Of a stretch of 32,888 nucleotides of DNA, positions 2,456-27,232 are shown piece after piece. The notes below the pieces were generated by a model. It was not told where the DNA came from, did no database searches, and saw only the letters and a list, made by a program, of their open reading frames with translations. This DNA comes from Deltaproteobacteria bacterium (GTDB lineage Bacteria; Myxococcota; UBA727; JABDBI01). How positions within the stretch are numbered: position 1 is the first letter of the stretch; every line of letters begins with the position of its first letter. The position numbers and the translations under genes were made by a program. The stretch lies in assembly GCA_016764955.1 (NCBI GenBank), contig JAESQZ010000163.1, positions 1 to 32,888 of the forward strand, in the 5' to 3' direction.

Positions 2456-3486
2456 GGAACCGGGTAATTGGTGTCAATGAAACACCATTTATTATTGCCG
2501 AGATGTCTGGCAATCATAATCGGTCTCTAGAACGAGCATTTGAGATTGTGAAAGCAGCTGCTCAAGCAGGAGCTCATGCACTGAAGCTGCAAACCTACAC
2601 AGCAGACACGATGACGCTGGACCTGTCTGAACGCGAGTTTTTTATTAGCGATGATAAAAGCTTATGGACTGGCAAAAGTTTGCATGAGTTATATCAGCAG
2701 GCCTATACACCCTGGGAATGGCATAAACCGATTTTTGATTTGTGTCGAGAACTTGATTTAATCGCTTTTAGTACGCCTTTTGATGAAACAGCGGTGGACT
2801 TTTTAGAATCTCTTGATGTGCCTTGTTATAAAATTGCTTCGTTTGAAAATACGGATATTGCATTGATTCAAAAAGTAGCTGCTACTGGTAAGCCAATGAT
2901 TATCTCTACCGGAATGGCTAGTGTGGGTGAACTGAGTGAGACAGTTTGTGCCGCTCGAGAAGCAGGATGTAAAGAACTGGTCTTGTTGAAGTGCACGAGT
3001 ACTTATCCGGCCTCACCAGAAAATACGAACCTACGCGCAATTCCACACATGCGAGAGTTGTTTAACTGTGAAGTAGGGCTGTCAGACCATACGATGGGTG
3101 TAGGGGCATCTGTAGGCGCTATCGCTCTGGGTGCGACGGTGATTGAAAAACATTTTACGCTGAATCGCGCTGATGGAGGTGTGGATAGTGCTTTCTCATT
3201 AGAGCCAAAAGAAATGGCAATGCTGGTGACTGAGACTCGGTGTGTTTGGAAGGCGCTTGGGACCGTTAGATATGGGGCGACAGAAGCTGAAAAAGCTTCC
3301 CGTGTTTTTAGGCGTTCGCTTTATGTGGCTCAAGATTTACAAGCAGGTGAAGTTTTGACCCGGCAGAATCTTCGGGCGATTAGACCTGGACATGGTTTAG
3401 CGCCTAAGTATCTTAAGAATCTACTGGGTAGAAAAGTGAGTCAGCCGGTTAAAAGAGGCACCCCAATGCAGTGGGAGCTTGTTTGA
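2425..3486 (+). CDS. pseI: Pseudaminic acid synthase (NeuB family, with SAF/antifreeze-like C-terminal domain)
   Basis: Motifs PFIIAEMSGNHN, YKIASFE, ISTGMA, LLKCTSTYPA, GLSDHT and IEKHFTL, plus C-terminal IRPGHGLAPKY. An alternative GTG start at 2446 (VRIGNRVIG...), preceded by GGGG, may be the true start. Confidence 0.9.
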   Translation: MCLPGVIVRIGNRVIGVNETPFIIAEMSGNHNRSLERAFEIVKAAAQAGAHALKLQTYTADTMTLDLSEREFFISDDKSLWTGKSLHELYQQAYTPWEWHKPIFDLCRELDLIAFSTPFDETAVDFLESLDVPCYKIASFENTDIALIQKVAATGKPMIISTGMASVGELSETVCAAREAGCKELVLLKCTSTYPASPENTNLRAIPHMRELFNCEVGLSDHTMGVGASVGAIALGATVIEKHFTLNRADGGVDSAFSLEPKEMAMLVTETRCVWKALGTVRYGATEAEKASRVFRRSLYVAQDLQAGEVLTRQNLRAIRPGHGLAPKYLKNLLGRKVSQPVKRGTPMQWELV

Positions 3487-4625
3487 TTCCATACGCACGT
3501 CAGAATATTAGTCAGTCAGATATCGATGCAGTGATTGCTGTATTGAAATCTGATTTTTTAACACAAGGGCCAGCTGTTCCGGCATTCGAACAAGCAGTTG
3601 CTGAATATTGCAGGGCCAAACACGGAGTTGCGGTGAATAGTGCGACATCTGCGTTGCATGTCGCCTATTTGGCGCTTGGCCTAGGGCCGGGTGATATTTT
3701 GTGGACATCGCCAAATACTTTTGTGGCTTCAGCAAACTGCGGGCTTTACTGTGGAGCAAAAGTGGATTTCGTAGATATTGATCCTGAGACTCTGAACATG
3801 AGTGTTTCGGCTTTGCAGGAGAAACTTGAGTTGGCCGAAATCAGGGGTTGCTTGCCGAAAGTAGTCGTGCCAGTGCATTTTGCAGGCCAATCTTGCCAAA
3901 TGCGCGAGATTAAAATGTTGTCTCAGCGTTATGGGTTCAAAATTATAGAAGATGCTTCTCATGCTATTGGGGGAAAGTATCTAGGTAAGCCCGTAGGGTG
4001 TTGTGAATATTCAGATATCACCGTGTTTAGTTTTCATGCAGTGAAAATCATGACGACCGGCGAAGGCGGTATGGCGATGACCAATGACTTAGCATTAGCT
4101 GAAAAAATGCAGCTCTTTAGAAGCCACGGCATCACGCGTGATTTCCCCCCTTTGAAAAAGGGGGGTAGGGGGGATTTATGGTATTACGAACAAATCACCC
4201 TTGGCCACAACTACCGCATGACAGATATCCAAGCAGCATTAGGTTTAAGCCAGCTTAAGCGTTTAGATGAATTTGTCGCTTGCCGAAGGCGACTAGCAAC
4301 TCGGTATACCAAAGAGTTTAAAGAAGCATCAGTTAAGATGCAGTGCCAACATGAAAATACAGATCCTGCTTGGCACTTGTATGTGATTCGAGTCCGAGAA
4401 CGCGATCGAGTGTTTGCTGCTTTGCGTGAGAAGGGTATTGGGGTGAATGTGCACTATATCCCTGTACACACGCAGCCATATTATCAAAAGCTTGGTTTCA
4501 AGTGGGGGAATTTTCCACAAGCTGAAAGCTATTATCAAGAGGCTATGACATTGCCGCTGTATGTTGGACTGAATGAAGAGCAACAGGAGAGTGTGATTGC
4601 GAACTGTCGCGATTATACAAGCTAG
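3471..4625 (+). CDS. pseC: UDP-4-amino-4,6-dideoxy-N-acetyl-beta-L-altrosamine transaminase (DegT/DnrJ/EryC1 family, PLP-dependent)
   Basis: IPYARQNISQSDIDAV...FLTQGP, DASHAIGG, SFHAVKIMTTGEGG (PLP lysine) and WYYEQ..LGHNYRMTDIQAALG. The start is GTG 3471 or TTG 3483. The latter forms a TTGA overlap with the pseI stop. Confidence 0.85.
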   Translation: MGACLIPYARQNISQSDIDAVIAVLKSDFLTQGPAVPAFEQAVAEYCRAKHGVAVNSATSALHVAYLALGLGPGDILWTSPNTFVASANCGLYCGAKVDFVDIDPETLNMSVSALQEKLELAEIRGCLPKVVVPVHFAGQSCQMREIKMLSQRYGFKIIEDASHAIGGKYLGKPVGCCEYSDITVFSFHAVKIMTTGEGGMAMTNDLALAEKMQLFRSHGITRDFPPLKKGGRGDLWYYEQITLGHNYRMTDIQAALGLSQLKRLDEFVACRRRLATRYTKEFKEASVKMQCQHENTDPAWHLYVIRVRERDRVFAALREKGIGVNVHYIPVHTQPYYQKLGFKWGNFPQAESYYQEAMTLPLYVGLNEEQQESVIANCRDYTS

Positions 4626-5292
4626 ATTGGGTTCTACACGTTTGCCGGCCAAGATTATGCTTGACTTGGGTGGTAAGACTGCGCTTGAACGTTGTCTTGA
4701 ACGCGTTTCGCGTTTTAGAGGGTTATCAGAAATCGTTTTGGCTACGACCAGAGAAGCTCAGGATGATTTGGTGGTAGCACTAGCAAAGCGTTTAGATGTT
4801 CGTATTTATCGAGGTGATGAAAAAGACGTTTTGAGGCGATATGTAGAGGCTGCGCGTGAAGCTCAGGCAGATATAGTTGTAAGATGTACGTCGGATTGTC
4901 CCTTGTTAGACCCTGAAACATCTTCGAAAGTAATTGAAACTTTTTTGAATCGGCATGTAAGCATGGATCCAGTTGACTATGTATCCAATAACCTTGAGCG
5001 ATATTTGCCGCTTGGTCTTGATACGGAAGTATTCTCTATGAGTGCTCTTGAAAAAGCAAATCGAATAGCAGATGATGCCAGTGAACGAGAACATGTGACT
5101 ATAGCCATGTATCGCCGTCCAGAAGAGTTTAGGTGTATTCCTGTAAGATTGAATGAGCTAGGAGATCTTTCAGGGCATAGGTGGACGTTGGATACGCTTG
5201 CTGATTATCATTTTCTGGCGTCGGTTTTTAACAAACTGGGGGCTTCGGCAGATATGGCTTCCATGAAAGATGTTCTTCGTGCAGCGAATTAA
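4597..5292 (+). CDS. pseF: Cytidylyltransferase, SpsF/PseF-like (predicted CMP-pseudaminic acid synthetase)
   Basis: The TTG-start N-terminus MRTVAIIQARLGSTRLPAK is typical of SpsF-type acylneuraminate cytidylyltransferase-family proteins. It sits directly after pseC in a pse set. Substrate is inferred from context only. Confidence 0.7.
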   Translation: MRTVAIIQARLGSTRLPAKIMLDLGGKTALERCLERVSRFRGLSEIVLATTREAQDDLVVALAKRLDVRIYRGDEKDVLRRYVEAAREAQADIVVRCTSDCPLLDPETSSKVIETFLNRHVSMDPVDYVSNNLERYLPLGLDTEVFSMSALEKANRIADDASEREHVTIAMYRRPEEFRCIPVRLNELGDLSGHRWTLDTLADYHFLASVFNKLGASADMASMKDVLRAAN

Positions 5293-5896
5293 AGCCTGTA
5301 TTCTCAACTATGGCAGCGGGAATGTTGGGTCTGTTTTGAACATGCTTATGCTGTTGAAGGTAGATGTGATTATTTCGAATGAGCACACAGATATTCAAGG
5401 CGCTACCCATCTTATTTTGCCTGGAGTGGCGGCATTTGGGTCAGCCATGGAGAAGATTAAAAAGACTATCCCGTTGGATATTGTCTCCAGAGAAGTTCAT
5501 CAGATAAAAAAACCGTTTTTGGGAATCTGTGTTGGGATGCAAATATTAGCCGACAAGGGTTTTGAATTCGAAGAATATGATGGATTGGGATGGATATCTG
5601 GGGAAGTTAAAAAAATAGACGCTGGGGAGCTAATTCTGCCTCATGTTGGCTGGAACGAGTTGATTCCCAGAAGCTCATCAAACCTGATGCAGCGTATTGA
5701 GGGCCATTCAGATGTTTATTTTACGCATAGTTACGCATTTCATGCAAAAGACCCAAGTCATATTGTGGCGGAGACAAAATATGGTCAGTGCTTCCCCTCG
5801 GTGATCCAGAAGGACAATATTTGTGGTGTTCAATTTCACCCCGAGAAAAGTCAAAAGATTGGAATGGCCATTGTGAAAAATTTCTTGAGCATGTGA
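5270..5896 (+). CDS. hisH: Glutamine amidotransferase subunit, HisH-like (LPS-locus paralogue, WbuY type)
   Basis: NYGSGNVGSV, GICVGMQIL (nucleophile Cys) and VQFHPEKS (His-Glu of the triad). The true start may be GTG 5279. Confidence 0.8.
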   Translation: MFFVQRIKACILNYGSGNVGSVLNMLMLLKVDVIISNEHTDIQGATHLILPGVAAFGSAMEKIKKTIPLDIVSREVHQIKKPFLGICVGMQILADKGFEFEEYDGLGWISGEVKKIDAGELILPHVGWNELIPRSSSNLMQRIEGHSDVYFTHSYAFHAKDPSHIVAETKYGQCFPSVIQKDNICGVQFHPEKSQKIGMAIVKNFLSM

Positions 5897-6729
5897 TGAA
5901 AAAGAAACGGCTGATTCCAGTATTATTGCTCAAGGATGGCTTTTTGGTCCAGAGCCGTAGTTTTTCAACCTATCGAAATTTGGGAAACCCTGTTACTGCG
6001 ACGAAACGTCTCAATGCGTGGGGACCAGATGAGATTATTTATTTGGATATTTCAAAATCAGATAATTATGATCTCCGTAGGGACGATATTAAACATCCAA
6101 ATCGTAACAACTTCTTAGACATTCTTGAAGATGTGGCTCAGGTGACGTTTGCGCCGATTACCATCGGGGGAAAGGTTCGGGCACTTAGAGATGTCGAACA
6201 GCGCTTAAGAAAAGGTGCAGATAAGGTATCTATTAATACGAAGGCACTTGAAGAACCTCGGTTTATCACTGAAATGGCCAATGAGTTTGGTTCTCAGTGC
6301 GTTGTGGTATCGATGGATGTCAAAATCATCGATGGTGAACATCGGGTGATGGCTCATGGGGGTATGAAGGAGATGCGCTATGATCCAGTTGAATGGGCTC
6401 ATATTGTGCAGAATTCTGGGGCTGGCGAGATATTGCTAAATTCGGTGGATAGAGATGGCCAAAAGGTAGGTTTTGATATTGAATTAATAGACAAAGTATC
6501 ATCGAGAGTACGAATTCCAGTAATTGCCCTGGGAGGGGCAGGTGAATGGGAGCATTTTGCAGAGGTATTTTTGAGAACCAAGGCAGATGCTGTGGCTGCT
6601 GCCAACTTGTTTCAGCACATGGAGCAGAGTCTCTATCTAATTAAAAAGCAATTGCACGATCATGAATTCCCCGTAAGGCGTCCATTTATTTCTGAGGATC
6701 TTGCTAATGAAAAACATGACCTATTGTAA
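5896..6729 (+). CDS. hisF: Cyclase/synthase subunit, HisF-like (LPS-locus paralogue, WbuZ type)
   Basis: MKKKRLIPVLLLKDGFLVQS...IYLDIS...IGGKV...SVDRDG...IALGGAG is a (beta/alpha)8 HisF pattern. ATG 5896 abuts the hisH stop (TGATG). The ORF-track extension back to 5788 overlaps hisH and is unlikely to be coding. Confidence 0.8.
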   Translation: MKKKRLIPVLLLKDGFLVQSRSFSTYRNLGNPVTATKRLNAWGPDEIIYLDISKSDNYDLRRDDIKHPNRNNFLDILEDVAQVTFAPITIGGKVRALRDVEQRLRKGADKVSINTKALEEPRFITEMANEFGSQCVVVSMDVKIIDGEHRVMAHGGMKEMRYDPVEWAHIVQNSGAGEILLNSVDRDGQKVGFDIELIDKVSSRVRIPVIALGGAGEWEHFAEVFLRTKADAVAAANLFQHMEQSLYLIKKQLHDHEFPVRRPFISEDLANEKHDLL

Positions 6730-7903
6730 GCAGTGTGTGTATCCATCGATGTCAGTTAATCTTTACATTGGCGAAGATGGGGTATGCTCAGCCTGTGATG
6801 TTGCTGAAAAGTTTGAGTTTCTGACACCTGAATTTTGGAAAAAGAGAGAAGACAAGTTTGTTAAACTGATTTCTGAGGCATTAGAACGTAACACCTCTCA
6901 CTATGACTGTATTATTCCCGTGAGTGGTGGAAAAGATAGTTACTTCCAGACACATCTAATGGTTAACAAATACGGCTTGAAACCGCTACTAGTGACCTAT
7001 CATGGCAATAACTATCTTTCTGAAGGCGACTACAACCGCGATCGAATGCGCCATGTTTTCGATGCGGATCATTTGGTGATGGGTCCCAGTGTAGAAGTGC
7101 TAAAGAAGTTAAACCGTATTTGTTTTCGAAAAATGGGCGATATGAATTGGCATGCCCATTGCGGCATTATGACTTTTCCCATCATTGCAGCAGTTCGTTT
7201 CCAGGTTCCATTAATTATCTGGGGAGAAGCATCATGGGATATATCCGGTATGCATGAACCCGATGATTTTGTGGAGTTCAGTGCCAGAACACGACATGAA
7301 CATTGTCTTCGAGGTTTTGAATGGTTTGATATGCTGGATGATGAGCAAGATAGACTTTCCGAGAAAGATCTAAGCTGGGCAAAATATCCATCTGACAACG
7401 AAATTTTGAAACTGGGAGTCCGGGGAATATATGTAGGCAATTTTTTCAAATGGGATCCGAATCAACAAACTCAATTAATGAAAGATTTGTATGGATGGAA
7501 AGAGGCCGAAAAACCATTTGAACGCACTTATCGAAAGATGTCTAATTTGGATGATCGATATGAAAATGGAATTCATGATTTGCTTAAATTTATTAAATTC
7601 GGTTATGGGCGATGTTCAGACCATGTCTCAAAAGACATTCGGCTCGGTTATATGACGCGGGAAGAAGGGGCCGAGCTTGTCAGAAAATATGACCCTGTTG
7701 TATCGTCTGATCTTCAGTATTGGTTGAAATATGTCGACATAACTGAGGAAGAATTTTGGAAGACAGCTGATAAATTTCGAGACCCTAGAGTTTGGTGGAT
7801 TAAAGATAAAAAGTGGTGGAAAGATAATCTTTGGGGGAGCAGTTCTTCCTACGGAGAGGTACATCTGAGTCGGGTGGAACAAGAGAAGTATGCCTCCTGC
7901 TAG
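6707..7903 (+). CDS. pseA: N-acetyl sugar amidotransferase (PP-loop ATP pyrophosphatase; PseA/WbpG/WbuX/LfnA family)
   Basis: YCKQCVYPS...GVCSAC (zinc-ribbon-like N-terminus) and IIPVSGGKDSY (SGGxDS PP-loop). It directly follows the hisH/hisF paralogues, the classical trio arrangement. ATG 6707 has GAGGA 8 nt upstream. Confidence 0.8.
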   Translation: MKNMTYCKQCVYPSMSVNLYIGEDGVCSACDVAEKFEFLTPEFWKKREDKFVKLISEALERNTSHYDCIIPVSGGKDSYFQTHLMVNKYGLKPLLVTYHGNNYLSEGDYNRDRMRHVFDADHLVMGPSVEVLKKLNRICFRKMGDMNWHAHCGIMTFPIIAAVRFQVPLIIWGEASWDISGMHEPDDFVEFSARTRHEHCLRGFEWFDMLDDEQDRLSEKDLSWAKYPSDNEILKLGVRGIYVGNFFKWDPNQQTQLMKDLYGWKEAEKPFERTYRKMSNLDDRYENGIHDLLKFIKFGYGRCSDHVSKDIRLGYMTREEGAELVRKYDPVVSSDLQYWLKYVDITEEEFWKTADKFRDPRVWWIKDKKWWKDNLWGSSSSYGEVHLSRVEQEKYASC

Positions 7904-8011
7904 AGAGTATGTTCGATTGAATGAGCGCAATGCAATCTTATGAATCTTTAGGTGAAGAAGTAATTGTACTGGTTCCTCCTGGAAGTTCGATTTTAGTTGG
8001 GTTTGAACGGG

Positions 8012-8107
8012 CTAAAAAACACCTGGTTTGGGTCTGATCTGCTCCCGCAAATGCGCATTCGGAGCAAAGACGCCCGCATAGCGGATCATATGCTTGCGGG
8101 GAGTTTC
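8012..8107 (-). mobile_element. Relic of an IS91-family (Y2 rolling-circle) transposase C-terminus; non-functional fragment
   Basis: Minus-strand translation from 8101 down to 8012 reads PRKHMIRYAGVFAPNAHLREQIRPKPGVF-stop. This resembles the conserved RY.GV.APN..LR C-terminal block of IS91/IS801/ISCR transposases. Stops close the frame immediately upstream, so only about 30 codons survive. Confidence 0.4.
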
Positions 8108-8340
8108 TCTTCAGCTTCCTGACGAGCCTGCTTGAGTTCTGAGAGGCTTTCGACGGGCTTCTCAGTTTAAAACAACCCCATAGAGTTTAGCAGTAGCCTG
8201 CGTAAGCCATTTGGCGCCTTGTGAAAGGTAGTAACTCACATAGCTTTGAATAATTTTATTGTTGTGACCGACAAATAAAACAATGCAGATGCAATTTAAG
8301 AAATTCCTCATTGTGAGTGAGTATGCCGGAGGCTTTTTCT

Positions 8341-8466
8341 ATGCATGCTGAACAGTATCAAGAAGATTTGCACTATCCAGAGTTTCGCCTAACTATTGAC
8401 TACAGGGAGGATTTACAACTGATTAAAGAGATCTGTAAGACTTTACACCATGAAACCAAAGAATAA
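8341..8466 (+). pseudogene. 3' fragment of a second SpsF/PseF-like cytidylyltransferase gene
   Basis: It translates to MHAEQYQEDLHYPEFRLTIDYREDLQLIKEICKTLHHETKE-stop. The block FRLTIDYREDLQLIKEI parallels HRWTLDTLADYHFLASV near the C-terminus of the intact pseF. No nucleotidyltransferase N-terminal part lies upstream. Its 3' end overlaps the start of the second pseI. Confidence 0.5.
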
Positions 8467-9528
8467 TCTAACAATAGAAAATAAGGCAATAGAGCTTAGT
8501 TCGCCTCCGTTTATTATTGCTGAAATGTCGGCCAATCATAATCAGAGCTTTGACAGGGCCAAAAATATAATTATTGCGGCTAAAGATTGTGGTGCAGATG
8601 CAGTGAAGGTACAGAATTATTCTGCTGATACTTTGACAATGAATTTCTCAACGGAGTCTTTTAGAATAAAGGACAGCAACCCAGATTGGAATGAGAAAAC
8701 ACTTTATGATTTGTATAAAGAGGCTGCAATGCCGTGGGAGTGGTATCCAGAATTAAAAAGAATTGCAGATGATTGTGGTATTATTATTTTTTCAACTGTA
8801 TGCGATGAGACAGCGGTAGAATTTCTTGAAAAAATGGATGCTCCGGCTTATAAAATCGGATCTTTTGAAATCAATCATATACCTTTGATTGTTAAAGCAG
8901 CATCTACGGGTAAGCCCATTATTATGTCCACAGGCATGGCCACTCGTATTGAAATCGAAGAAGCAGTTGCAGCGGCTCAAGATGCTGGATGTAGAGATAT
9001 TGCTTTGCTTAAATGCACTAGTGCTTACCCATCAACACCTGAGGAAGCAAATATTTTAACTATCCCTGATATGAGAGAACATTTCAATTGTGAATTGGAC
9101 TTTCGGATCATACATTAAGCCTTGGAGTGCCATTAACTGCAGTTGCCCATGGAGCCACTATAATTGAAAAACACTTTACGTTAAATCGTAAAGACGGCGG
9201 TTTAGATGCCTCATTCTCATTAGAACCGGACGAATTAAAGTCCCTTGTGAAGGAGGCTAACATAGCATGGAAGTCATTGGGGAAAGTATATTATGGCGCT
9301 ACCGCTATTGAGAAACCCTCTCTTCAGGAACGCCGTTCTCTTTATATTGCAGAAGATATGCAGATTGGTGATAGACTTAACAGGCAAAACCTTCGGTGTA
9401 TTCGTCCTGGTCATGGACTAGCACCTAAATATTATAATAAACTTATTGGAAAGTCTGTGAAACAAGACGTTAAAAGGGGCAGTCCAATAAGCTGGGAAAT
9501 GGTGGAGACGAGCAATAATGAAAATTAA
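8450..9528 (+). pseudogene. pseI: Second pseudaminic acid synthase paralogue, disrupted by a 1-nt deletion
   Basis: ORFs 8450-9118 and 9127-9528 together align end to end with the intact PseI (PFIIAEMSANHN ... LLKCTSAYPS ... IEKHFTL ... IRPGHGLAPKY). Frame 1 reads NCELDFRIIH-stop. Shifting one base at GG 9097-9098 restores NCEL-GLSDHTLSLGVPLTAVAHGATIIEKHF, including the metal-binding SDH motif. Confidence 0.8.
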
Positions 9529-10690
9529 CTCCCACAACGAATGGGATAAACTTCGCGAAGTTGTCGTAGGCACGGCTGAAAATATGACTGTAGGACTAGA
9601 ATTTAATCCTTCACAGTCTGTTTCTCCAGATCTATTCGCTAAGGCTTGCCAGGCTGCTAAAAAGGCTCTTCCTGAATGGTACAAAGAAGAAGTCGCAGAA
9701 GATCTTCATGATTTATGCAAAATCCTGACAGATTTTGGAGCGGAAGTTTTTCGTCCTGCTCCAATAAAAGGTGAGAAATTGTTTTCCACACCTCATTGGA
9801 GCGCCTCAGGGAAAGATATTTATAACGTGCGTGATCTTCATATTATTATTGGAGATCACGTTATGGTTAGTCCTTTTGTAAGTCGCTGTAGGCTTTACGA
9901 GCCAAATGCTTTTGCCGATATTTGGTATCATTATTTCGAACAAGGTTTTAAATGGCTCATGGCCCCTCAACCGAAACTAGAAGGAACCTATGTTGTTCCC
10001 TACTATCCTGAAGGACAGGAAGAGACAACCGAAGAAGATATTTTGCACCGTAAATTAAGTGATGGAAGAGCGGAAAAGTATTATCGACTTACTGAGGATT
10101 CAATATTATTTGACGCAGCAAATGTAGTTCGGTTTGGAAAAGATCTTATTTATTTAATTTCCAGCACAGGTAATGAAAAGGGAGCTAGGTGGCTACAGAG
10201 CATATTAGGGGAGGAATATCGGGTCCACACAACCTCCACCTATAAATCTTCCCATATCGATTCTACCATAATGCCGTTACGAGCAGGTCTAGTTCTACTT
10301 AATGAGGCTAGAGTCAGTCCAAAAAGTTGTCCTCCAATTCTTAACAGCTGGAATAAAGTTTATTTTAATGACATGGCATCTCTTCCTAAAGAAGAAATCG
10401 ATTTTCAAAGCAATGTTAGAGACAAAGTTTACAAAGAACTTAAGGAATTGGGGGTAGACTCTGATCTAAATCATATAAGCTCGCCTTGGGCGGGCATCAA
10501 CGTACTCTCTCTAGATCAGAGCACCGTTTTGGTGCATGATCGACAAAAAAACCTTATCAAAGAACTTGAAAATCATAAACTAAACGTAATTCCAGTACGT
10601 ATGAGGCACTGTTACACCATGCTTGGAGGATTACACTGTTCAACTCTAGACACAGTGAGAGAAGGGAAGTTGGAAAACTATTTTGACTAA
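9518..10690 (+). CDS. Amidinotransferase of the glycine amidinotransferase (AGAT)/StrB1 family
   Basis: By eye it aligns along its whole length to human AGAT. SHNEWDKLREVVVGTAENM matches SYNEWDPLEEVIVGRAENA. LFDAANVVRFGKD matches CFDAADFIRAGRD. SSHIDSTI matches PMHIDATF. MLGGLHCSTLD matches LGGGFHCWTCD, the catalytic Cys, here codon 374 at 10637-10639. Confidence 0.85.
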   Translation: MKINSHNEWDKLREVVVGTAENMTVGLEFNPSQSVSPDLFAKACQAAKKALPEWYKEEVAEDLHDLCKILTDFGAEVFRPAPIKGEKLFSTPHWSASGKDIYNVRDLHIIIGDHVMVSPFVSRCRLYEPNAFADIWYHYFEQGFKWLMAPQPKLEGTYVVPYYPEGQEETTEEDILHRKLSDGRAEKYYRLTEDSILFDAANVVRFGKDLIYLISSTGNEKGARWLQSILGEEYRVHTTSTYKSSHIDSTIMPLRAGLVLLNEARVSPKSCPPILNSWNKVYFNDMASLPKEEIDFQSNVRDKVYKELKELGVDSDLNHISSPWAGINVLSLDQSTVLVHDRQKNLIKELENHKLNVIPVRMRHCYTMLGGLHCSTLDTVREGKLENYFD

Positions 10691-11339
10691 GAAAAATAGT
10701 AATTTTCACTGGGTGTATTTTGACCTCGATGGAACTCTTGCGGATTGTATTTCTGAATCTTATAAGGCACATATTAATTTTTTAAATCAGTTTGGTGCTA
10801 TGGGAGGAAAGGCAGAATTTGAGGAATTGAATGGTCTTTCTCTGTCTGAGACTATAGCAATATTGAAAAAAAGATATTATCTTCCAGATACTGAAGAGGA
10901 TCTAACTGCTTTATATAGGGGAAGACTTTTAATTGCCTATAATAATTCCATTCAGCCATGTGAGGGTGCATCTGATACTTTAGAAGAATTGATAAATAGA
11001 AAATATAATTTGGCGATAGTGACTTCTGCTGATCAAGAAATTGGTATGGGGTTTATTGAGAAGCAAAATTTGGGCGAACATTTCCAAATCTTTGTATTTG
11101 GAGATGAGGTTGAAAAGGCAAAGCCTAATCCAGAAATTTATAGACTTGCTCTGAAAAAGACCAATGCTTCGGCTCAAAATGTGGCTGTTGTCGAAGATTC
11201 TTATAATGGAGTGAAATCAGCTAAGGCAACGGGAGCATTTGTAATAGGAGTGGCCAACAATCAATCAAAAGAAGATCTTATAAAAGCAGGCGCCGACACT
11301 ACGATTCTAAAACTAAGTGAAATATTGCAAATATTATAA
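10683..11339 (+). CDS. HAD-superfamily hydrolase (beta-phosphoglucomutase/phosphatase-like subfamily IA)
   Basis: VYFDLDGTLADC (DxDGT motif I), VTSA (motif II), KAKPNPEIY (motif III Lys) and VVEDSYNGVKSAKATGA (motif IV). Start is TTG 10683 or GTG 10713. Confidence 0.75.
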   Translation: MTKKNSNFHWVYFDLDGTLADCISESYKAHINFLNQFGAMGGKAEFEELNGLSLSETIAILKKRYYLPDTEEDLTALYRGRLLIAYNNSIQPCEGASDTLEELINRKYNLAIVTSADQEIGMGFIEKQNLGEHFQIFVFGDEVEKAKPNPEIYRLALKKTNASAQNVAVVEDSYNGVKSAKATGAFVIGVANNQSKEDLIKAGADTTILKLSEILQIL

Positions 11340-11353
11340 CTTTAATATGACTC

Positions 11354-12148
11354 ATGAGTAGAATTAGAAAAAACTACAAAGTAGAAGCCTTTGGTAAGAT
11401 ACAGCTACTTGAATGTTTTCCTCCTTCGGTGAGTCAAATCTCTCAAGAGCAAAAGCTTCAAATTGACAGAGTATGGCAAAGAGCCTTAAACACGGTAGGA
11501 GCCAAACTAGTAAATGAAACTTTACTAGACTTTGTCAGCCTCGAAATAGGACCAAGTCAAGTAAAAATATTTGCCAATTTCATTGAATACAAATATTTTT
11601 ATGCTCAAAGAAAACGTATCGATCTGGATCTTGGAATTAGACCAATTGGGGTAAGTGGTATTATATTTTTGGAGCAAGACTTTGATTGCTTTGTAGTTTT
11701 TGCACAAAGGTCTGAGCAAGTTACAGAATATCCGGGATTATATGAGCTAGTTCCCTCTGGGAATATTGATAAAGAGTATTCCTATAGCAATAGAGTTATC
11801 GATTACCGGTCTAAATTATTGTCGGAATTTGTTGAAGAGACAGGGTTGTCGAGAAATTATGTAAGAGATATTTCTGAGTTTGCCTTTATTTTAGATACAA
11901 ATCATAATGTATTTGATGTTTGCTGCAAAATTACTCTTGAGGTAAAAAAGGAAACTCTTTTCAATGGACTCCTGGATTCAGAAGAATATAAAAACCCAAT
12001 GTTTATTTCGACAAAAGATTTGGGTAAATTTATAAATGAGAACAAAAAGACGATAGTGCCAACCTCACTGGCCATTCTCGAGGCATGTGGTGAAGTAATG
12101 TTAGGAAAAGCACTTTGGAAAGATGTTGGAATTTCCGTTAGGATTTAA
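11354..12148 (+). CDS. Hypothetical protein with a possible degenerate Nudix fold
   Basis: A clean 264-aa ORF in the operon frame. The segment PSGNIDKE...(long loop)...LLSEFVEETGLS resembles the Nudix box GX5EX7REUXEEXGU, but with an expanded loop. No other motif was recognised. The function call is weak; the coding call is fairly safe. Confidence 0.4.
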   Translation: MSRIRKNYKVEAFGKIQLLECFPPSVSQISQEQKLQIDRVWQRALNTVGAKLVNETLLDFVSLEIGPSQVKIFANFIEYKYFYAQRKRIDLDLGIRPIGVSGIIFLEQDFDCFVVFAQRSEQVTEYPGLYELVPSGNIDKEYSYSNRVIDYRSKLLSEFVEETGLSRNYVRDISEFAFILDTNHNVFDVCCKITLEVKKETLFNGLLDSEEYKNPMFISTKDLGKFINENKKTIVPTSLAILEACGEVMLGKALWKDVGISVRI

Positions 12149-12151: not shown

Positions 12152-14131
12152 ATGTCGTTTGATTTAACCACCGAACAACGTGAGCGACTCAAACAGCGTA
12201 TCCTGAGGATGAGTTTGCATTTTGGGAAAGAGGATGTTCAAAAGCCGTTAATTCTTGTCAGTACGCCAGGATCTCTCTTAGAAACTGGATTCCAACAAGC
12301 ACAAAAATATCTAATGGATGGCCAAGCTGTTCACTTAGTTGGACATGGTGTGACCCTCCAGCATGTACGGCCTGAATGGGTTTCAAGTCACAGCGGGGCA
12401 AAATTTATTCTGACGGAGCTTGGAGCTTATGTCTCTGAGGCTTTTGTTACTCCTTGGAATTTAGCACTTCGAAATGCTGTTAGAAAATGGCTTGGACAAT
12501 GCTTCAAAAAAGCAGCGTCAGAGTTGGAAGCTGAAAAGATTTTTCTTTCCAGTGTAATAAACCGGTTCTTATGTTTGGATAATGATCCGTCCCGATATAC
12601 AAGCATGGTTAAGATTCACGCAGATTCTGAGTTTATTTTTACAGACCCTTATTGGGAAGGGGCTTGGATTCATCAAACACTTGAGAAACGAACAAGCAGA
12701 GCGGGGTGTTTATGGGCCCAAGTCCTGTTTGCAACCAAGATATTTTTTTTATTACCTATCTATAGTTGTGCAGCAATTTTTAGAATTTTGAAAAATTATT
12801 TGGGTTCTAAACAAGGTGTAAGAAAAATTGCAATTCGGAGAGAGGCCACTCAGAAAAAAAAGCCAGAAGCCTGGTTTGTCCTTGCAGCTAATAATAAACG
12901 CATCAATGCTCAACTGGTCAAGCATATAATTCATGGTTTACCTAAGGCTATGGGGCTTTTTCTGTCAGGCGATCTTAGAATGCTGATTCAGAAAGACAGT
13001 GATTTGAAATCAGCAAAATCAGATATTTTCTTGGAAGGATTAGGTGACTTACTCAAGCACCTGGAGCATTTTTCTTTGGATCAGATTGTATGGCCTGATT
13101 CAATCACATCAATTTTTTGGTGTATTTACCAATGCTGGGTGATTCAGATTAAATCTGTGATTGCGGTAATTAAACAGGGGCCATTTTTAGAATTAGGAGA
13201 AGGTGTCAGGATTAATTTTAATCACTATATGCCTCAGATTCTTCGAATTTTAAGTATTGACCTGTTGAGTGCCCAAATTGGGTATGAGACTGCTCGACTA
13301 ATTTTTAAGAGACAGGAATTAGAGGGCATTCCTGTGGTATTTGCATCGGCCAATAGCCCAGAGCTGTCGACTTTCTGTTGGTATCTAGCTCAAAAAGGAG
13401 CGCATTGCGTAGAGCATTTGCATGGTACTCATGCGGCTGCCAGTGAAGCCTCTCCTATTAAATTTCGATGGGATCAGTCTGAACGAGAAACGTCTAGATT
13501 ATTAGGTGAGAAAGTCATTTTTGCTGGGACACCACCCCTGCTCGATATAAAGAGGCTGGATAGAAGTTTGCATGAGCCAGTGCGTATTCTTTTCTTAAGC
13601 AATTATGTTCATAGAGATTCGGTTACTCAAGGACGGTATCCTGCATTTTGTTTTCAAGAAGAGATGTTAGGGACTATTCCATTGATTCAAACGCAGCTGT
13701 TTTCGTCTCAGCTGCGTTGGAGGCCGCATCCTGCGGATTCACGAGAGGCTGTATATAAAACATCGGAAAAATATAAAACTTTAAACCTTTCTTTGACGGG
13801 GACAATAGAAAAAGATCTCAATTGGGCAGATATTGTAATTTCAAGCTTATCTACATCAATTAGCCAAGCACTACTGATGGGTTTGCCTGTTTTTGTTCAT
13901 TTGATACCAGACTTTCAGGGTTCTTATCAAACCTGTTTTATTTCGTCTAAGCGTATTTTTTTCCGCTCCAATGAACTTGCACCGAAAATTATTGAATTTC
14001 TGGAACATTACTTATATAGAAAAAACGAGGCTTTTCAGCCTGAACGTGAAGCACGAGTAGCTTTGTTTGGCGTCCTTGAAAGACCAACTGGATTTTGGGA
14101 TGGATTATCAGCAATCGATTTAAGTGACTAG
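12152..14131 (+). CDS. Large orphan protein, candidate nonulosonic-acid (or glycerophospho-) transferase
   Basis: A 659-aa ORF starting 3 nt after the previous stop. One strongly hydrophobic segment (VLFATKIFFLLPIYSCAAIF). The C-terminal ~230 aa look like a GT-B-type half: VRILFLSNY, then LRWRPHPAD (HP motif at 13727-13732), then ADIVISSLSTSISQALLMGLPVF. The function is inferred, not recognised by clear homology. Confidence 0.45.
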   Translation: MSFDLTTEQRERLKQRILRMSLHFGKEDVQKPLILVSTPGSLLETGFQQAQKYLMDGQAVHLVGHGVTLQHVRPEWVSSHSGAKFILTELGAYVSEAFVTPWNLALRNAVRKWLGQCFKKAASELEAEKIFLSSVINRFLCLDNDPSRYTSMVKIHADSEFIFTDPYWEGAWIHQTLEKRTSRAGCLWAQVLFATKIFFLLPIYSCAAIFRILKNYLGSKQGVRKIAIRREATQKKKPEAWFVLAANNKRINAQLVKHIIHGLPKAMGLFLSGDLRMLIQKDSDLKSAKSDIFLEGLGDLLKHLEHFSLDQIVWPDSITSIFWCIYQCWVIQIKSVIAVIKQGPFLELGEGVRINFNHYMPQILRILSIDLLSAQIGYETARLIFKRQELEGIPVVFASANSPELSTFCWYLAQKGAHCVEHLHGTHAAASEASPIKFRWDQSERETSRLLGEKVIFAGTPPLLDIKRLDRSLHEPVRILFLSNYVHRDSVTQGRYPAFCFQEEMLGTIPLIQTQLFSSQLRWRPHPADSREAVYKTSEKYKTLNLSLTGTIEKDLNWADIVISSLSTSISQALLMGLPVFVHLIPDFQGSYQTCFISSKRIFFRSNELAPKIIEFLEHYLYRKNEAFQPEREARVALFGVLERPTGFWDGLSAIDLSD

Positions 14132-14148: not shown

Positions 14149-15348
14149 GTGAACGCTGATATTATTATCATCGGCGGTGGCATTATTGGTTGCGCAACTG
14201 CCATGCGTCTATTACAGGCCAAACCTAGTATGAAGCTCTTGGTTCTCGAAAAAGAAGGCTCTGTAGCTCAGCACCAAAGTGGCCGAAACAGTGGTGTGAT
14301 TCACTCAGGGCTTTACTATAAGCCGGGCTCTCTGAAAGCAACCAATTGTCGCAGAGGTTATAGGCAGTTGATTGACTTCTGCCAACGAGAAAATATTGCA
14401 CATGAGATTTGTGGCAAGTTGGTTATAGCAACATCAGCTGAAGATGTGCCTAGGCTTGAAGAGCTTCGGCGCCGTGGGATAGCCAACGGCTTAAGAGGCC
14501 TTCGGTGGTTGAAAGCCGAAGAAATTCTAGAGACTGAACCGAATTGTTCTGGTGTCGCAGGGCTGCTTGTGCCTCAGACGGGTATCGTTGATTACGGTGT
14601 TGTCGCCCGCAAATATAGTGAAAAGATCCAGGAACTTGGTGCACAGGTGAAACTTGGAGAAGAGGTTATCGATATTCGGTCTCAGTCTGGCAAAGTAGAA
14701 GTGATTGGCAGAAATCAAAGCTGGATGGCAAGTTCGGCGATTGTCTGCGCTGGCTTACAGGCTGATCGCTTGGCAGTTAAGACGACGAAAGATTTGCCTG
14801 TACGAATTATACCGTTTCGGGGTGAGTATTATAAACTCAAAGAATCAGCTAGATATTTGGTCAAAAATTTGATTTATCCGGTTCCGGATCCAAAGTTCCC
14901 GTTTTTAGGAGTACATTTTACACGAATGATAGATGGTGGCATCGAGTGCGGCCCGAATGCTGTGTTGGCTTTCGGGCGCGAGGCTTATCGAAAGACTGAT
15001 TTTAGTTTGCGCGATACTTGGGAGACACTGGCTTGGCCAGGATTTAGAAAAATGGCCAGGCAATATTGGCGAATGGGGTTTGGCGAATGGCATCGATCGG
15101 TGAGTAAAAGAGCTTTTGTGAAAGCCTTGCAAAAATTAGTCCCCACGATTCAATCTGGAGATTTAGAATCAGGGAGAGCAGGAATCCGGGCTCAAGCCTG
15201 TGATCGAGAGGGGAATCTGCTAGATGATTTTGATATTCGGACTCATGGTCCTGTGATCCAAGTCTGCAATGCGCCATCACCTGCGGCGACAGCATCACTG
15301 GCAATTGCTGATGTTTTAGTTTCCAGAGTTATTGAATGCTTTAAATAA
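14149..15348 (+). CDS. lhgO: FAD-dependent L-2-hydroxyglutarate oxidase/dehydrogenase-like flavoprotein
   Basis: GTG start. DIIIIGGGIIGCATA is an FAD dinucleotide fold. HQSGRNSGVIHSGLYYKPGSLKA closely matches the LhgO/YgaF signature HQTGHNSGVIHAGVYY.PGSLKA. C-terminal VCNAPSPAATASL. Confidence 0.75.
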   Translation: MNADIIIIGGGIIGCATAMRLLQAKPSMKLLVLEKEGSVAQHQSGRNSGVIHSGLYYKPGSLKATNCRRGYRQLIDFCQRENIAHEICGKLVIATSAEDVPRLEELRRRGIANGLRGLRWLKAEEILETEPNCSGVAGLLVPQTGIVDYGVVARKYSEKIQELGAQVKLGEEVIDIRSQSGKVEVIGRNQSWMASSAIVCAGLQADRLAVKTTKDLPVRIIPFRGEYYKLKESARYLVKNLIYPVPDPKFPFLGVHFTRMIDGGIECGPNAVLAFGREAYRKTDFSLRDTWETLAWPGFRKMARQYWRMGFGEWHRSVSKRAFVKALQKLVPTIQSGDLESGRAGIRAQACDREGNLLDDFDIRTHGPVIQVCNAPSPAATASLAIADVLVSRVIECFK

Positions 15349-15407: not shown

Positions 15408-15989
15408 ATGCATACAAAACAGTATTTTGAAGAAACATGTAAAATCGCTGGCCTCGTAGATATCCATGCAATTGAAAAACTGGTGTCAGAACTGGTAGCG
15501 CTTCGTAGGCGTGAAGGAAGACTTTTTTTCTTGGGGGTTGGTGGAAGTGCAGCCAACTGTAGTCATGCGGTCAATGATTTTAGAAAGCTTTGTGGCATCG
15601 AGGCTTATACGCCAGTCGATAATGTTTCAGAATTGACCGCTCGTACCAATGATGAAGGATGGCATACCGTATTTTCGGAATGGTTGCAGGGTAGCAAAGC
15701 CAATAAAAACGATGCTGTATTTGTGTTATCTGTAGGCGGTGGAAGTGTTAAAAATCATGTTAGTGTTAACATTGTTAATGCCCTTCGAGAAGCCAAATCC
15801 CGTAATATGAAAATTTTTGGTGTTGTTGGCCGTGATGGTGGTTATACTAAGGAAGTAGGGGATGTGGTCGTCGTTATTCCAACAGTGAATGAATCGAAAA
15901 TTACGCCGCATACAGAGGCCTTTCACGCAGTGGTTTGGCACTGCTTAGTTTCTCACCCGGAATTACAGCAAGTTGCGACGAAATTGTGA
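15408..15989 (+). CDS. gmhA: SIS-domain sedoheptulose-7-phosphate isomerase
   Basis: A 193-aa protein with LFFLGVGGSAANCSHAVNDF and VFVLSVGGGS. The size and motifs fit GmhA, and gmhB and hldE-like genes lie alongside. Confidence 0.75.
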   Translation: MHTKQYFEETCKIAGLVDIHAIEKLVSELVALRRREGRLFFLGVGGSAANCSHAVNDFRKLCGIEAYTPVDNVSELTARTNDEGWHTVFSEWLQGSKANKNDAVFVLSVGGGSVKNHVSVNIVNALREAKSRNMKIFGVVGRDGGYTKEVGDVVVVIPTVNESKITPHTEAFHAVVWHCLVSHPELQQVATKL

Positions 15990-16530
15990 TATTTTAAAAA
16001 GACGAGCGGTCTTTTTAGACCGCGATGGCGTTGTCAATCATCCTGTTATTAGAAATGGGAAATCTTACTCACCTCAATCGATAGAAGAATTCGAGCTTTT
16101 GCCGGGTGTTATCCAAGCAGTAAACTCACTTCGCCAGGCAGGGTTCTTAATTGTTATCGTGACGAATCAACCTGATGTTTCAAAAGGTACTCAAACCCGA
16201 GAAGTCATAGAATCAATGCACAATGTGTTGTGGTCTACTTTATCTCTAGATGATATTAAAATATGTTTTCATGTGGATTTAGATGGTTGTTATTGTCGAA
16301 AACCAAAACCCGGTATGTTGTTTGAAGCAGCTAGAGAGCTGGAAATTGACTTGTCACTAAGTTTTATAGTGGGTGATCGATGGCGAGATGTGGCAGCAGG
16401 AAAAAGTGCTGGTTGTTACACGTTTTTTATTGATTATGGATATGCAGAACAACGTCCTGATGACCCGGATGCAATCGTGGAGTCATTAGAAGAGGCAAGC
16501 CAGCTTATTTTAGAGGGGGAACAAATATGA
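15973..16530 (+). CDS. gmhB: D-glycero-D-manno-heptose 1,7-bisphosphate phosphatase (HAD-IIIA)
   Basis: AVFLDRDGVVN (DxDGV), VTNQPDVSKG, the Cys cluster CFH..DGCYCRKPKPGM (zinc-binding loop plus RKP) and VGDRWRDVAAG. The TTG start overlaps the gmhA end. Confidence 0.8.
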   Translation: MRRNCDILKRRAVFLDRDGVVNHPVIRNGKSYSPQSIEEFELLPGVIQAVNSLRQAGFLIVIVTNQPDVSKGTQTREVIESMHNVLWSTLSLDDIKICFHVDLDGCYCRKPKPGMLFEAARELEIDLSLSFIVGDRWRDVAAGKSAGCYTFFIDYGYAEQRPDDPDAIVESLEEASQLILEGEQI

Positions 16531-17228
16531 AAGTGAAGCTTTTTGCAGATGGTGCAGATCTAAATGGCATGAAAGAAATGTATGCCAATCCGTTGATTAA
16601 GGGGTTTACAACCAATCCGACCTTAATGCGAAAAGCCGGCATTCAAGATTATCGAACATTCGCACGTCAAGTTCTTGAAGCCATACCTGATCGTCCGATT
16701 TCTTTCGAAGTATTCGCCGATGACTTTGATGACATGAAGCGCCAAGCGTTGGAAATCGCATCTTGGGGAAAAAACGTGAACGTAAAAATCCCAGTGACCA
16801 ATACCAAGAATCAGTTTGCTGGTCACTTGATTGAGTATCTTTCCAAAGAAGGAGTTTCTCTGAATGTAACTGCATTAATGTCTCTGAAACAAGTTGGGCA
16901 GGTGTCGGACTGTTTAGCACCTGAGACACCTGCGATTATTTCTGTATTTGCAGGGCGTATAGCAGATACTGGTGTTGATCCAATGCCCATGATGGCTGAG
17001 GCCGTCAAGATTATGCATGCCAAACCTAAAGCAGAATTAATTTGGGCAAGTCCACGGGAATTACTCAATATTTTTCAAGCAGATGCAGTAGGTTGTCATA
17101 TTATTACGGCCACTAATGATATTTTGAAAAAGCTCTCACTGGTTGGTAAAGATCTAGATCAGTATTCGCTCGAGACTGTTGAAATGTTCCATAGGGACGC
17201 CATGGTGGCTGGATACACAATTAACTAA
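16527..17228 (+). CDS. Transaldolase/fructose-6-phosphate aldolase family protein (short TalC/FSA-like type)
   Basis: KLFADGADLNGMKEMYANPLIKGFTTNPTLM and NVKIPVT (Schiff-base Lys context) in a ~230-aa protein. ATGA overlap with gmhB. Confidence 0.7.
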   Translation: MKVKLFADGADLNGMKEMYANPLIKGFTTNPTLMRKAGIQDYRTFARQVLEAIPDRPISFEVFADDFDDMKRQALEIASWGKNVNVKIPVTNTKNQFAGHLIEYLSKEGVSLNVTALMSLKQVGQVSDCLAPETPAIISVFAGRIADTGVDPMPMMAEAVKIMHAKPKAELIWASPRELLNIFQADAVGCHIITATNDILKKLSLVGKDLDQYSLETVEMFHRDAMVAGYTIN

Positions 17229-17242
17229 AAAGGAAACGATAG

Positions 17243-18244
17243 ATGTTTAAGAATGTATTAATCACTGGTGGCGCTGGTTATGTTGGTTGTGTATTGACTC
17301 GTCAATTGCTGGGTGCTGACTATGATGTGACTGTTTATGATGCGATGTATTTTGGACGCGACGGTTTGCCGGAACACTCAAATTTAAGAGTGATTGAAGG
17401 AGATATTCGAGACACCCCAAAACTAAAAAATGCTTTTGAGGGGATGGATATTGTCCTGAATCTAGCTTGTATTTCAAATGACCCTAGCTTTGATCTGGAT
17501 GAGAACCTAAGTAAAAGCATTAATTTTGATTGTTTTGAACCCATGGTTGTTGCTGCTAAGCAAGCTGGTGTAAAACGTTTTATTTATGCTTCTACAAGCT
17601 CAGTGTATGGAGTGAGTTCGGCACCTGACGTGACAGAAGAACATCCATTGGTACCTTTGACCTATTACAACAAGTTTAAAGGGCTATGTGAGCCGTTGTT
17701 GTTTAAGCATCAGTCACCTGAGTTTACTTGTGTGACGGTTCGGCCTGCAACTGTTTGCGGTTATAGTCCGCGGACTCGTTTAGACCTTTCAGTCAATATT
17801 TTAACCAACCATGCAGTTAATAATAACAAGATTACTGTATTCGGTGGTTCTCAGCTACGTCCTAGCCTGCATGTCAATGACATGGCAGACTTGTACAAAC
17901 TTCTATTAGAAGTTCCAAATGAAAAGATAGCTGGTCAGACATTCAATTCAGGTTACGAGAATCATAGCATCGCAGAGATTGCTGGGATGGTTCGAAAAGT
18001 AGTTTTAGAGGAGTTTCCCAAAAAAACAGATATTCCGATTGAGACAGTGCCAACGGACGATCTGAGATCCTACCATATTAATTCGGACAAGATTGCTCGG
18101 GTTCTCGGGTTTAAACCTAAACGCAACATTGAAGATGCTGTTAGAGACCTATGCAAAGCTTTTAAAGATGGCCAACTTCCAAATAGTTTCACGGATGATC
18201 GATACTACAATGTCAAAACCATGAAGAATCTAGATGCCAAATAA
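17243..18244 (+). CDS. NAD-dependent nucleotide-sugar epimerase/dehydratase (extended SDR)
   Basis: VLITGGAGYVGC, ASTSSVYG and YYNKFKG (YxxxK). AAGGAAA lies upstream of the ATG. Specificity is unknown. Confidence 0.7.
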   Translation: MFKNVLITGGAGYVGCVLTRQLLGADYDVTVYDAMYFGRDGLPEHSNLRVIEGDIRDTPKLKNAFEGMDIVLNLACISNDPSFDLDENLSKSINFDCFEPMVVAAKQAGVKRFIYASTSSVYGVSSAPDVTEEHPLVPLTYYNKFKGLCEPLLFKHQSPEFTCVTVRPATVCGYSPRTRLDLSVNILTNHAVNNNKITVFGGSQLRPSLHVNDMADLYKLLLEVPNEKIAGQTFNSGYENHSIAEIAGMVRKVVLEEFPKKTDIPIETVPTDDLRSYHINSDKIARVLGFKPKRNIEDAVRDLCKAFKDGQLPNSFTDDRYYNVKTMKNLDAK

Positions 18245-19229: not shown

Positions 19230-19233
19230 GGAA

Positions 19234-24720: not shown

Positions 24721-24726
24721 CTAAGT

Positions 24727-27219: not shown

Positions 27220-27232
27220 AGGGATTAGTTTG

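Follow-up and report, generated by a model that had tools for sequence, protein, structure and literature searches.

What does an amidinotransferase do in the middle of a gene cluster for nonulosonic acids (NulOs)? The question is raised by a contig of 32,888 nucleotides from a Deltaproteobacteria bacterium (JAESQZ010000163.1 of assembly GCA_016764955.1; this whole stretch is called the window below), in which the open reading frame (ORF) 9518-10690 on the + strand, here named AmT, follows a full set of genes for pseudaminic acid (Pse) synthesis. NulOs decorate flagella, S-layers, capsules and lipopolysaccharide, and the substituents on their nitrogens determine surface charge, recognition by phages and the immune system, and resistance to sialidases. 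A preliminary description of the window had suggested that AmT guanidinylates an amino sugar of the Pse pathway or makes a guanidino acid that serves as an N-acyl decoration. The comparative analysis reported here favors the first possibility. We propose, with a probability of about 0.55, that AmT is an L-arginine-dependent enzyme acting inside the Pse pathway, where it would amidinate the product of PseC instead of PseH acting on it, leading to a 7-guanidino Pse.

AmT is an amidinotransferase of the AGAT/StrB1 family

The ORF encodes 390 amino acids and is free of stops on translation. In a phmmer search against PDB sequences, AmT matched the four structurally characterized amidinotransferases along its whole length: StrB1 (1bwd) with an E-value of 1.4e-68 over query residues 3-388, SxtG (6u1r) with 1.7e-47, human AGAT (1jdw) with about 1e-40 (6e-40, in two stretches) and HsvA (5wpi) with 3.7e-38. 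The likeness to vertebrate AGAT noted in the preliminary description is thus real at the level of the family, but the nearest characterized relative is StrB1 and not AGAT. The residues D170, D254, H303, D305, R322, S355 and C407 of AGAT (1jdw numbering), which form its active site, with D170, D305, R322 and S355 binding arginine, correspond to D106, D199, H246, D248, R265, S322 and C374 of AmT, so that all seven are kept. Catalysis would accordingly involve C374, H246 and D199, and the guanidino group of arginine would be bound by D106, D248, R265 and S322. The motifs FDAAN (D199), SHID (H246, D248) and GGLHCS (C374) had been read off correctly from the sequence and align with the AGAT active site. 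The catalytic Cys and His were invariant across 85 aligned sequences, and D106, D248, R265 and S322 were invariant or nearly so within the AmT clade described below. Since all arginine-contacting residues are conserved, arginine is the probable donor.

The structure predicted for AmT agrees with this assignment. An AlphaFold (AF2) model built from 22 orthologues (pLDDT 85, pTM 0.87) shows the five-fold beta/alpha propeller of amidinotransferases, and its best Foldseek match was StrB1 (E 6e-35, TM-scores 0.76/0.85, 34% identity), followed by SxtG, AGAT and HsvA; the seven top matches were all amidinotransferases, with TM-scores of 0.74-0.87. Relative to StrB1, AmT carries two insertions of ~22 residues (163-184 and 284-305) that hold clade-invariant residues. 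We conclude that AmT is confirmed as a genuine member of the AGAT/StrB1 family with an intact active site, predicted from its sequence to transfer the amidino group of arginine to an amine.

The same superfamily contains hydrolases, and AmT could be a hydrolase or deiminase, for example one that acts on the sugar by trimming or converting its acetamidino or guanidino group, or an arginine deiminase. The covalent Cys-His-Asp mechanism is common to all these enzymes, AmT has a weak match to the Pfam family ADI (PF02274), and some sources name its homologues 'arginine deiminase family' or DDAH. The match, however, scored 20.6 bits against a gathering cut-off of 22.8 and covers only 57 residues (325-381), and the NCBIfam arginine deiminase model gave 13.6 bits against a cut-off of 414. 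The label 'arginine deiminase' was therefore dropped; the sub-threshold C-terminal match is probably the reason why public sources name AmT homologues inconsistently. Amidinotransferases are also far closer to AmT (E 1e-68 by sequence and 6e-35 by fold) than arginine deiminases and DDAH, which matched the model at a Foldseek E-value of about 1e-10 with 11-13% identity. A hydrolytic role could be read into two features of the wider clade: the window and about 7 of the 66 surveyed loci carry genes of the acetamidino-forming WbuX/HisH/HisF system alongside AmT, and the residue at the position of AGAT D254 is Glu (FEAAN) in one of the two subfamilies, B. In subfamily A it is Asp (FDAAN), and the AmT of the window keeps this catalytic Asp. 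Taking these points together, we regard a hydrolase or deiminase as highly improbable.

AmT belongs to a clade linked to NulO genes

Among the candidates scored in the protein database we found 1,327 homologues of AmT at E ≤ 1e-10, mostly metagenomic. A scan of genomic loci, limited to one genome per species, returned 79 loci, in all of which ORFs were called and then searched with the proteins of the window. Orthologues with 44-71% identity to AmT (loci L008-L067) were present in Patescibacteria of the candidate phyla radiation (CPR), Pelagibacteraceae (SAR11), Prochlorococcus, Calothrix, Pseudanabaena, Nitrospira, Acidobacteriota, Planctomycetota, Leptospiraceae, Bdellovibrionota and others, and distant homologues with 31-38% identity in Streptomyces, cyanobacteria and others. 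The closest AmT in the scan (71% identical) came from a metagenome-assembled genome of Staskawiczbacteria, a match that may reflect gene transfer.

In a neighbor-joining tree with StrB1, SxtG and AGAT, the AmT orthologues were monophyletic and sister to the StrB1-like group, with AmT of the window inside subfamily A; they form a clade of their own, apart from all three references. Only this clade was linked to neuB/pseI genes: a NeuB homologue was encoded within 10 kb in 42 of the 62 clade loci but in none of the 15 outgroup loci, which included StrB1-like ones (nominal Fisher p about 9e-7). When the count was restricted to clade loci with both flanks complete, the proportion was 29/39, and five further gene contexts obtained by exact protein look-up agreed with the linkage. 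The window itself follows the pattern, as a second pseudaminic acid synthase gene (PseI2) overlaps the start of AmT and the full pse cluster lies upstream. These results support the existence of a previously undescribed and widespread amidinotransferase clade that, judged by gene context, is embedded in NulO clusters.

Gene partners point to an amino sugar of the Pse pathway as the probable acceptor

Partners were counted within 6 kb of AmT in subfamily A (22 loci including the window) and subfamily B (44 loci from SAR11, Prochlorococcus and many CPR bacteria, namely L007, L012-L062, L066, L068 and L070; e.g. L007 8744-12167). NeuB was encoded in 16/22 loci of subfamily A, where it was of the PseI type, and in 17/44 loci of subfamily B, where it was of the legionaminic acid (Leg)/Neu type. 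PseG was present in 11/22 and 1/44 loci, respectively. The other usual partners in subfamily A were PseB, PseC and PseF, and seven of its loci encoded a methyltransferase of ~237 amino acids. In subfamily B the usual partners were a NeuC-like epimerase, a GFO oxidoreductase, a CBS-nucleotidyltransferase and an SDR, and 27 loci encoded a ~408-amino-acid methyltransferase of the S-adenosylmethionine type, often upstream of AmT.

The usual gene order in subfamily A was pseB-pseC-pseF-pseG-pseI-AmT, and in 14 loci NeuB was located directly upstream of AmT on the same strand. The AmT-adjacent NeuBs of subfamily A were all of the PseI type, and the NeuB tree, which included few canonical PseIs, broadly paralleled the AmT tree. 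The enzyme that was rarely seen is PseH: a PseH-type GNAT was detected by jackhmmer in only 2/22 subfamily-A loci. Likewise, no acetyltransferase was among the 25 most frequent Pfam families of the 67 unassigned same-strand ORFs from 16 subfamily-A loci, a listing cut among families with two members, so that a single acetyltransferase family could account for at most two of the ORFs. That PseH was hardly ever detected suggests, together with the Pse gene order, that the acceptor is the 4-amino group of the hexose, which later becomes N7 of Pse. UDP-4-amino-4,6-dideoxy-N-acetylaltrosamine (AltNAc) is the candidate substrate, because its amine is the only free one in the pathway, PseH was almost never detected nearby and the acceptor of StrB1 is chemically alike. 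Comparative genomics thus speaks for the proposal that AmT guanidinylates an amino sugar of the Pse pathway, with an own clade, linkage to NeuB and PseH only rarely detectable nearby.

The partners of subfamily B bear on the timing of the reaction. A CE4 polysaccharide deacetylase was encoded in 40/44 of its loci, usually immediately downstream of AmT, which suggests deacetylation followed by amidination; with the methyltransferase, the gene content of these Leg-type clusters suggests a module that deacetylates, amidinates and methylates. A guanidino-NulO could therefore be made late, by amidination of an amine that is free on completed Pse or CMP-Pse, for instance once an N-acetyl group has been removed, and L001, a close relative of the AmT of the window, indeed has a PIG-L deacetylase in its cluster. 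In subfamily A, however, CE4 was found in 0/22 loci, and where PseH is almost never detected nearby, the 4-amine would be free without any deacetylase. Moreover, the dedicated PseI, Nudix and HAD genes of the window would serve a purpose only with a modification that takes place before condensation. We consider late action, the foremost alternative, unlikely for AmT of the window.

The conserved partners also speak to the other half of the original suggestion. AmT might produce a free guanidino metabolite of low molecular weight (guanidinoacetate, homoarginine, a guanidino acid or a polyamine derivative) that is subsequently added as an N-acyl group or has nothing to do with the glycan; the characterized relatives AGAT and HsvA do act on small amines. 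An ATP-grasp, acyl-CoA or ligase gene was never a conserved partner, and without a ligase among the partners the guanidino acid as an N-acyl decoration found no support. What is conserved instead is PseI, PseG, PseB/C and PseF in subfamily A, or CE4 and the methyltransferase in the Leg-type clusters of subfamily B, and the linkage to NulO genes extends through the clade but was not seen in the outgroups. A free guanidino product is therefore quite improbable, and amidination of the PseC product is the reading that we develop further.

Two Nitrospira loci (L029 and L050) combine a pse cluster with AmT and WbuX/HisH/HisF, and PseH was not detected in them. Taken at face value, these gene sets predict a Pse with two cationic N-substituents.

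Proposed pathway to a guanidino pseudaminic acid

From the conserved residues and the gene context we infer donor, acceptor, order of steps and product as follows. PseB and PseC would make UDP-4-amino-4,6-dideoxy-beta-L-AltNAc. The amidino group of arginine would be loaded on Cys374 with release of ornithine and then passed to the free 4-amino group, so that amidination in place of acetylation by PseH would give the UDP-4-guanidino sugar. In the window, a Nudix enzyme would split this compound into UMP and the sugar-1-phosphate, and a HAD phosphatase would remove the phosphate, the two enzymes jointly doing the job of PseG. PseI2 would condense the free sugar with phosphoenolpyruvate to 5-acetamido-7-guanidino-Pse, which the resident PseF would activate with CMP. 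The WbuX system could convert the product further into the 5-acetamidino-7-guanidino form. For the guanidino form (C12H22N4O7) a monoisotopic mass of 334.1488 Da was calculated and for Pse5Ac7Ac (C13H22N2O8) one of 334.1376 Da, a difference of 11.2 mDa.

Several points weigh against this pathway. We know of no guanidino NulO. The acceptor could be a later intermediate, namely Pse that carries a free amine and is either unbound or linked to CMP. PseH could be encoded elsewhere in the subfamily-A genomes, and the detection of GNAT proteins may be incomplete. The loci compared are phylogenetically related and not independent, so that the p-values overstate their independence. The combination of AmT with HAD and Nudix genes was found only in the window, and PseG is used at other subfamily-A loci. 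A PseG-PseH fusion is present in the window as well, which would make the guanidino branch optional there. Finally, PseI2 of the window is frameshifted; if this is real, the branch is dead in the strain from which the window was obtained.

Gene neighborhood of AmT in the window

Every large ORF of the window lies on the + strand. The resident Pse cluster (126-5292), assigned with Pfam and NCBIfam equivalogs, comprises PseB (126-1136; above the equivalog cut-off), a 440-amino-acid PseG-PseH fusion (1133-2455), PseI (2425-3486; above the equivalog cut-off), and PseC (3471-4625) and PseF (4597-5292), both assigned by Pfam family. In the fusion, the PseG half scored above the NCBIfam cut-off, and the other half contains a GNAT domain by Pfam and is probably PseH; its score with the PseH equivalog was below the cut-off (25.9 versus 93.1 bits). 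This cluster would supply the amino-sugar substrate and the CMP activation.

It is followed by the Pfam-assigned genes for HisH-like (5270-5896) and HisF-like (5788-6729) proteins and by a WbuX/PseA-type N-acetyl sugar amidotransferase (6701-7903), which, besides its Pfam match, scored 311 bits with TIGR03573 (WbuX; cut-off 203). The acetamidino trio is thus a gene set of its own (5270-7903), as the preliminary description had it, distinct from AmT. Positions 7904-8449 are listed as non-coding in the map of the window.

Downstream of AmT, the first gene encodes a HAD-IA phosphatase of the beta-phosphoglucomutase/sugar-phosphatase type (10683-11339; Pfam HAD_2, E 3.6e-33, and NCBIfam). The overlaps of 1-11 nucleotides that had been described for AmT amount to 11 nucleotides with the upstream gene; the downstream one is 8 nucleotides provided that translation begins with the TTG at 10683. 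The next gene (11354-12148) encodes a 264-amino-acid protein with a remnant of the Nudix box (EFVEETGL), in which E158, E161 and E162 were invariant among 30 homologues. Its AF2 model (pLDDT 91) matched human NUDT22 best and over the whole length (Foldseek E 8e-15, TM-scores 0.72-0.76), and other Nudix proteins matched the core only. The structure match confirms the earlier label 'Nudix-like'; we assign the protein as a NUDT22-like two-domain Nudix hydrolase and propose from the model that it may be a UDP-sugar pyrophosphatase. NUDT22 is a UDP-glucose/galactose pyrophosphatase.

In at least nine homologues of the Nudix protein an N-terminal HAD domain is fused to it, which suggests that HAD and Nudix, encoded by separate genes in the window, form a functional pair. 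Two of the fusions (L089 8001-9389 and L091 8001-9356) are encoded within Pse-like clusters with genes for PseB-like, DegT, NeuB and CMP-transferase proteins and a formyltransferase or a GNAT (the latter in one of them). No PseG-like gene was evident in these two clusters, with the limits that PseG often has no Pfam match and that the PseG of the window was not used as a query there. The most economical interpretation is that HAD and Nudix would form a PseG-equivalent module converting the UDP-sugar via the sugar-1-phosphate to the free sugar, and the fusions in Pse-type clusters imply a PseG-independent route from the UDP-sugar to the free hexose.

The third gene downstream (12152-14131) encodes a 659-amino-acid protein without a Pfam match and without a PDB match by sequence or by a 30-sequence profile, and also without similarity to the Capsule_synth-like neighbors of AmT at other loci. 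Its family comprises 173 cluster representatives in 1.84 billion proteins. A weak match to TIGR04396 ('surface carbohydrate biosynthesis', E 6e-4) and one weak Glyphos_transf match among 30 homologues hint that it is possibly a GT-B-like transferase. In the ORF search of the surveyed loci, no homologues of the HAD, Nudix and 659-amino-acid proteins were found beside AmT orthologues, except for one HAD match in L060; these three proteins are therefore not clade-wide partners of AmT.

Further downstream, a gene for an L-2-hydroxyglutarate-oxidase-like flavoprotein (14149-15348; NCBIfam equivalog, 535 versus 299 bits) directly follows, amid the glycan locus. Genes for heptoses and branched sugars begin at 15408. 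The region 15408-32467 encodes an SIS isomerase, a GmhB-like HAD protein, a transaldolase-family protein, several SDRs, a DJ-1/PfpI protein, a methyltransferase, an HldE-like cytidylyltransferase-PfkB fusion with the domains in reverse order, and two thiamine-diphosphate enzymes, one of them with an N-terminal extension of ~250 amino acids that has no Pfam match. This gene set suggests a second sugar pathway for heptose and branched-chain sugar synthesis.

AmT lies in a cassette that looks recently acquired

The segment between about 8 and 14 kb has a GC content of 35-41%, compared with 42-47% on both sides. Its members are a remnant of pseF, PseI2, AmT, the HAD phosphatase, the Nudix hydrolase and, as the last gene, the 659-amino-acid protein; the genes share one strand and overlap or adjoin each other. 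Over the cassette, identity to the metagenome contig L087, which comes from another sample, is 99.5-99.8%, and the heptose genes just downstream (15-16 kb, from ~15,400) are 88-90% identical. The block looks like an acquired cassette that was recently exchanged horizontally between related lineages. The pseF-like remnant (8326-8460, + strand) corresponds to the last ~45 codons of a cytidylyltransferase gene; by blastx it is 47% identical (E 8e-10) to residues 177-221 of the 242-amino-acid cytidylyltransferase encoded directly upstream of NeuB-AmT in L008, the closest relative. A transposase-like remnant on the - strand (8012-8089) has a weak likeness to the C-terminus of plasmid-borne transposases (E 7e-3).

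The second pseudaminic acid synthase, PseI2/NeuB2 (8450-9528), shares 54.5% identity with the resident PseI. Its gene is broken in the window into ORFs 8450-9118 and 9127-9528 by a deletion of one nucleotide in an A-run at about 9095 (TGTG-AATTGGA in the window versus TGTGAAATTGGA in L087). After repair of this deletion, the protein scored 452 bits with the NCBIfam PseI equivalog TIGR03586 (cut-off 340). The gene that the preliminary description called a PseI paralogue is thus not intact in its window copy. At the start of the gene, L087 (534-620) contains ~85 extra bases compared with window positions 8458-8461, and in L087 another ATG serves as the start of PseI2, so that the protein begins with MNNLT... 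there and with MKPKNNLT... in the window.

The frameshift, the truncated pseF and possible transposase remnant upstream, and the low GC content could together indicate an insertion that is decaying and has lost its function, with an AmT that has no current role in this genome. The state of the genes argues otherwise. PseI2 is intact, with 356 amino acids, in two independent metagenome contigs (L087 and L088) that are 99.5-99.8% identical to the window here, and the AmT, HAD, Nudix and 659-amino-acid ORFs are all intact. A second split gene of the window, encoding a UDP-glucose/GDP-mannose dehydrogenase-like protein, also lacks an A in an A-run (22630-22665, atcaaaact where atcaaaaact is expected), as expected of homopolymer sequencing errors. 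Since PseI2 is intact in two assemblies and the same kind of defect recurs in the second gene, a homopolymer assembly error is likeliest, and PseI2 is probably not a pseudogene. We regard a dead cassette as very improbable.

Possible significance of guanidino NulOs

Within the collection of papers that we searched, nothing connected amidinotransferases with bacterial nonulosonic, pseudaminic or sialic acids, and no guanidino NulO was described; nor is a guanidino or amidino NulO mentioned in the SugarBase preprint. To our knowledge, no natural NulO has been reported to carry a guanidino substituent. The enzyme family and its mechanism are known; new here are the class of acceptor, the role in the pathway and the predicted sugar, across many phyla. 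We would tentatively go further and suggest, at a little short of an even chance, that guanidino NulOs of the Pse and Leg types, some possibly N-methylated, are widespread unrecognized bacterial surface sugars made by the AmT clade. They may have escaped notice, as N-amidino and N-acetyl forms are, at the 11.2 mDa given above, indistinguishable at low mass resolution.

A guanidino group would stay protonated at any physiological pH and neutralize the carboxylate of the NulO, and guanidino and acetamidino groups together would turn the acidic sugar zwitterionic or net-cationic. The AmT clade is widely represented among the dominant bacteria of marine and fresh waters and in the CPR, a group about whose surface chemistry very little is known. 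The established in vitro Pse pathway gives access to the proposed substrates, and Calothrix sp. NIES-2100 is a cultured carrier of the gene. AmT may also offer an enzymatic route to guanidino analogues of sialic acid, such as the synthetic drug zanamivir.

Comparison with known systems

The proposed pathway can be compared with known enzymes. The Nudix and HAD proteins would together bring about the same net reaction as PseG, the release of the free hexose from its UDP carrier. PseG, however, is a hydrolase of the GT-B type that releases UDP in one step, and the Nudix/HAD route would proceed via the sugar-1-phosphate. The Nudix protein shares the two-domain fold of human NUDT22, at only 15-17% identity.

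By outcome, there is an analogy with PseA/PtmG/WbuX acting with HisH/HisF, as in both cases an N-substituent of the NulO would become a cationic amidine-type group, and both systems are present in the window. The families and the chemistry differ: WbuX swaps the carbonyl oxygen of an existing N-acetyl group for NH, whereas AmT would add C(=NH)NH2 to a free amine. A placement of AmT among the PseA/WbuX proteins was rejected, as there is no similarity; that role belongs to ORF 6701-7903 (311 bits) with HisH/HisF (5270-6729). By position in the pathway, AmT resembles PseH, the UDP-4-amino-4,6-dideoxy-AltNAc N-acetyltransferase, for it would act on the same substrate at the same step, in clusters in which PseH was not detected. 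This is an analogy of position and not homology: PseH has a GNAT fold, uses acetyl-CoA and forms an acetamido product, and AmT would use arginine and form a guanidino product.

By homology, AmT belongs with the amidinotransferases. AGAT/GATM, SxtG and HsvA share its fold, the covalent Cys-amidino mechanism and all seven AGAT active-site residues, but their similarity to AmT is lower (E 1e-38 to 1e-47), they have no link to sugar pathways, and their acceptors are small amines, i.e. glycine for AGAT, a saxitoxin intermediate for SxtG and polyamines for HsvA. StrB1, the L-arginine:scyllo-inosamine-4-phosphate amidinotransferase of Streptomyces griseus, is the best match in both sequence and fold. 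AmT differs from it in the two ~22-residue insertions and in context, an aminocyclitol antibiotic cluster for StrB1 and a Pse/Leg NulO cluster for AmT. An assignment of AmT as a StrB1 orthologue was rejected, given the separate clade in the neighbor-joining tree, the lack of aminocyclitol genes in the window and the neighboring Pse genes. Nevertheless, the two enzymes have the same catalytic Cys, His and Asp, the same Asp, Asp, Arg and Ser binding residues and a short loop before the catalytic His, and the acceptor of StrB1, an amine on a phosphorylated six-membered ring, resembles the nucleotide-linked amino sugar that we propose as the acceptor of AmT.

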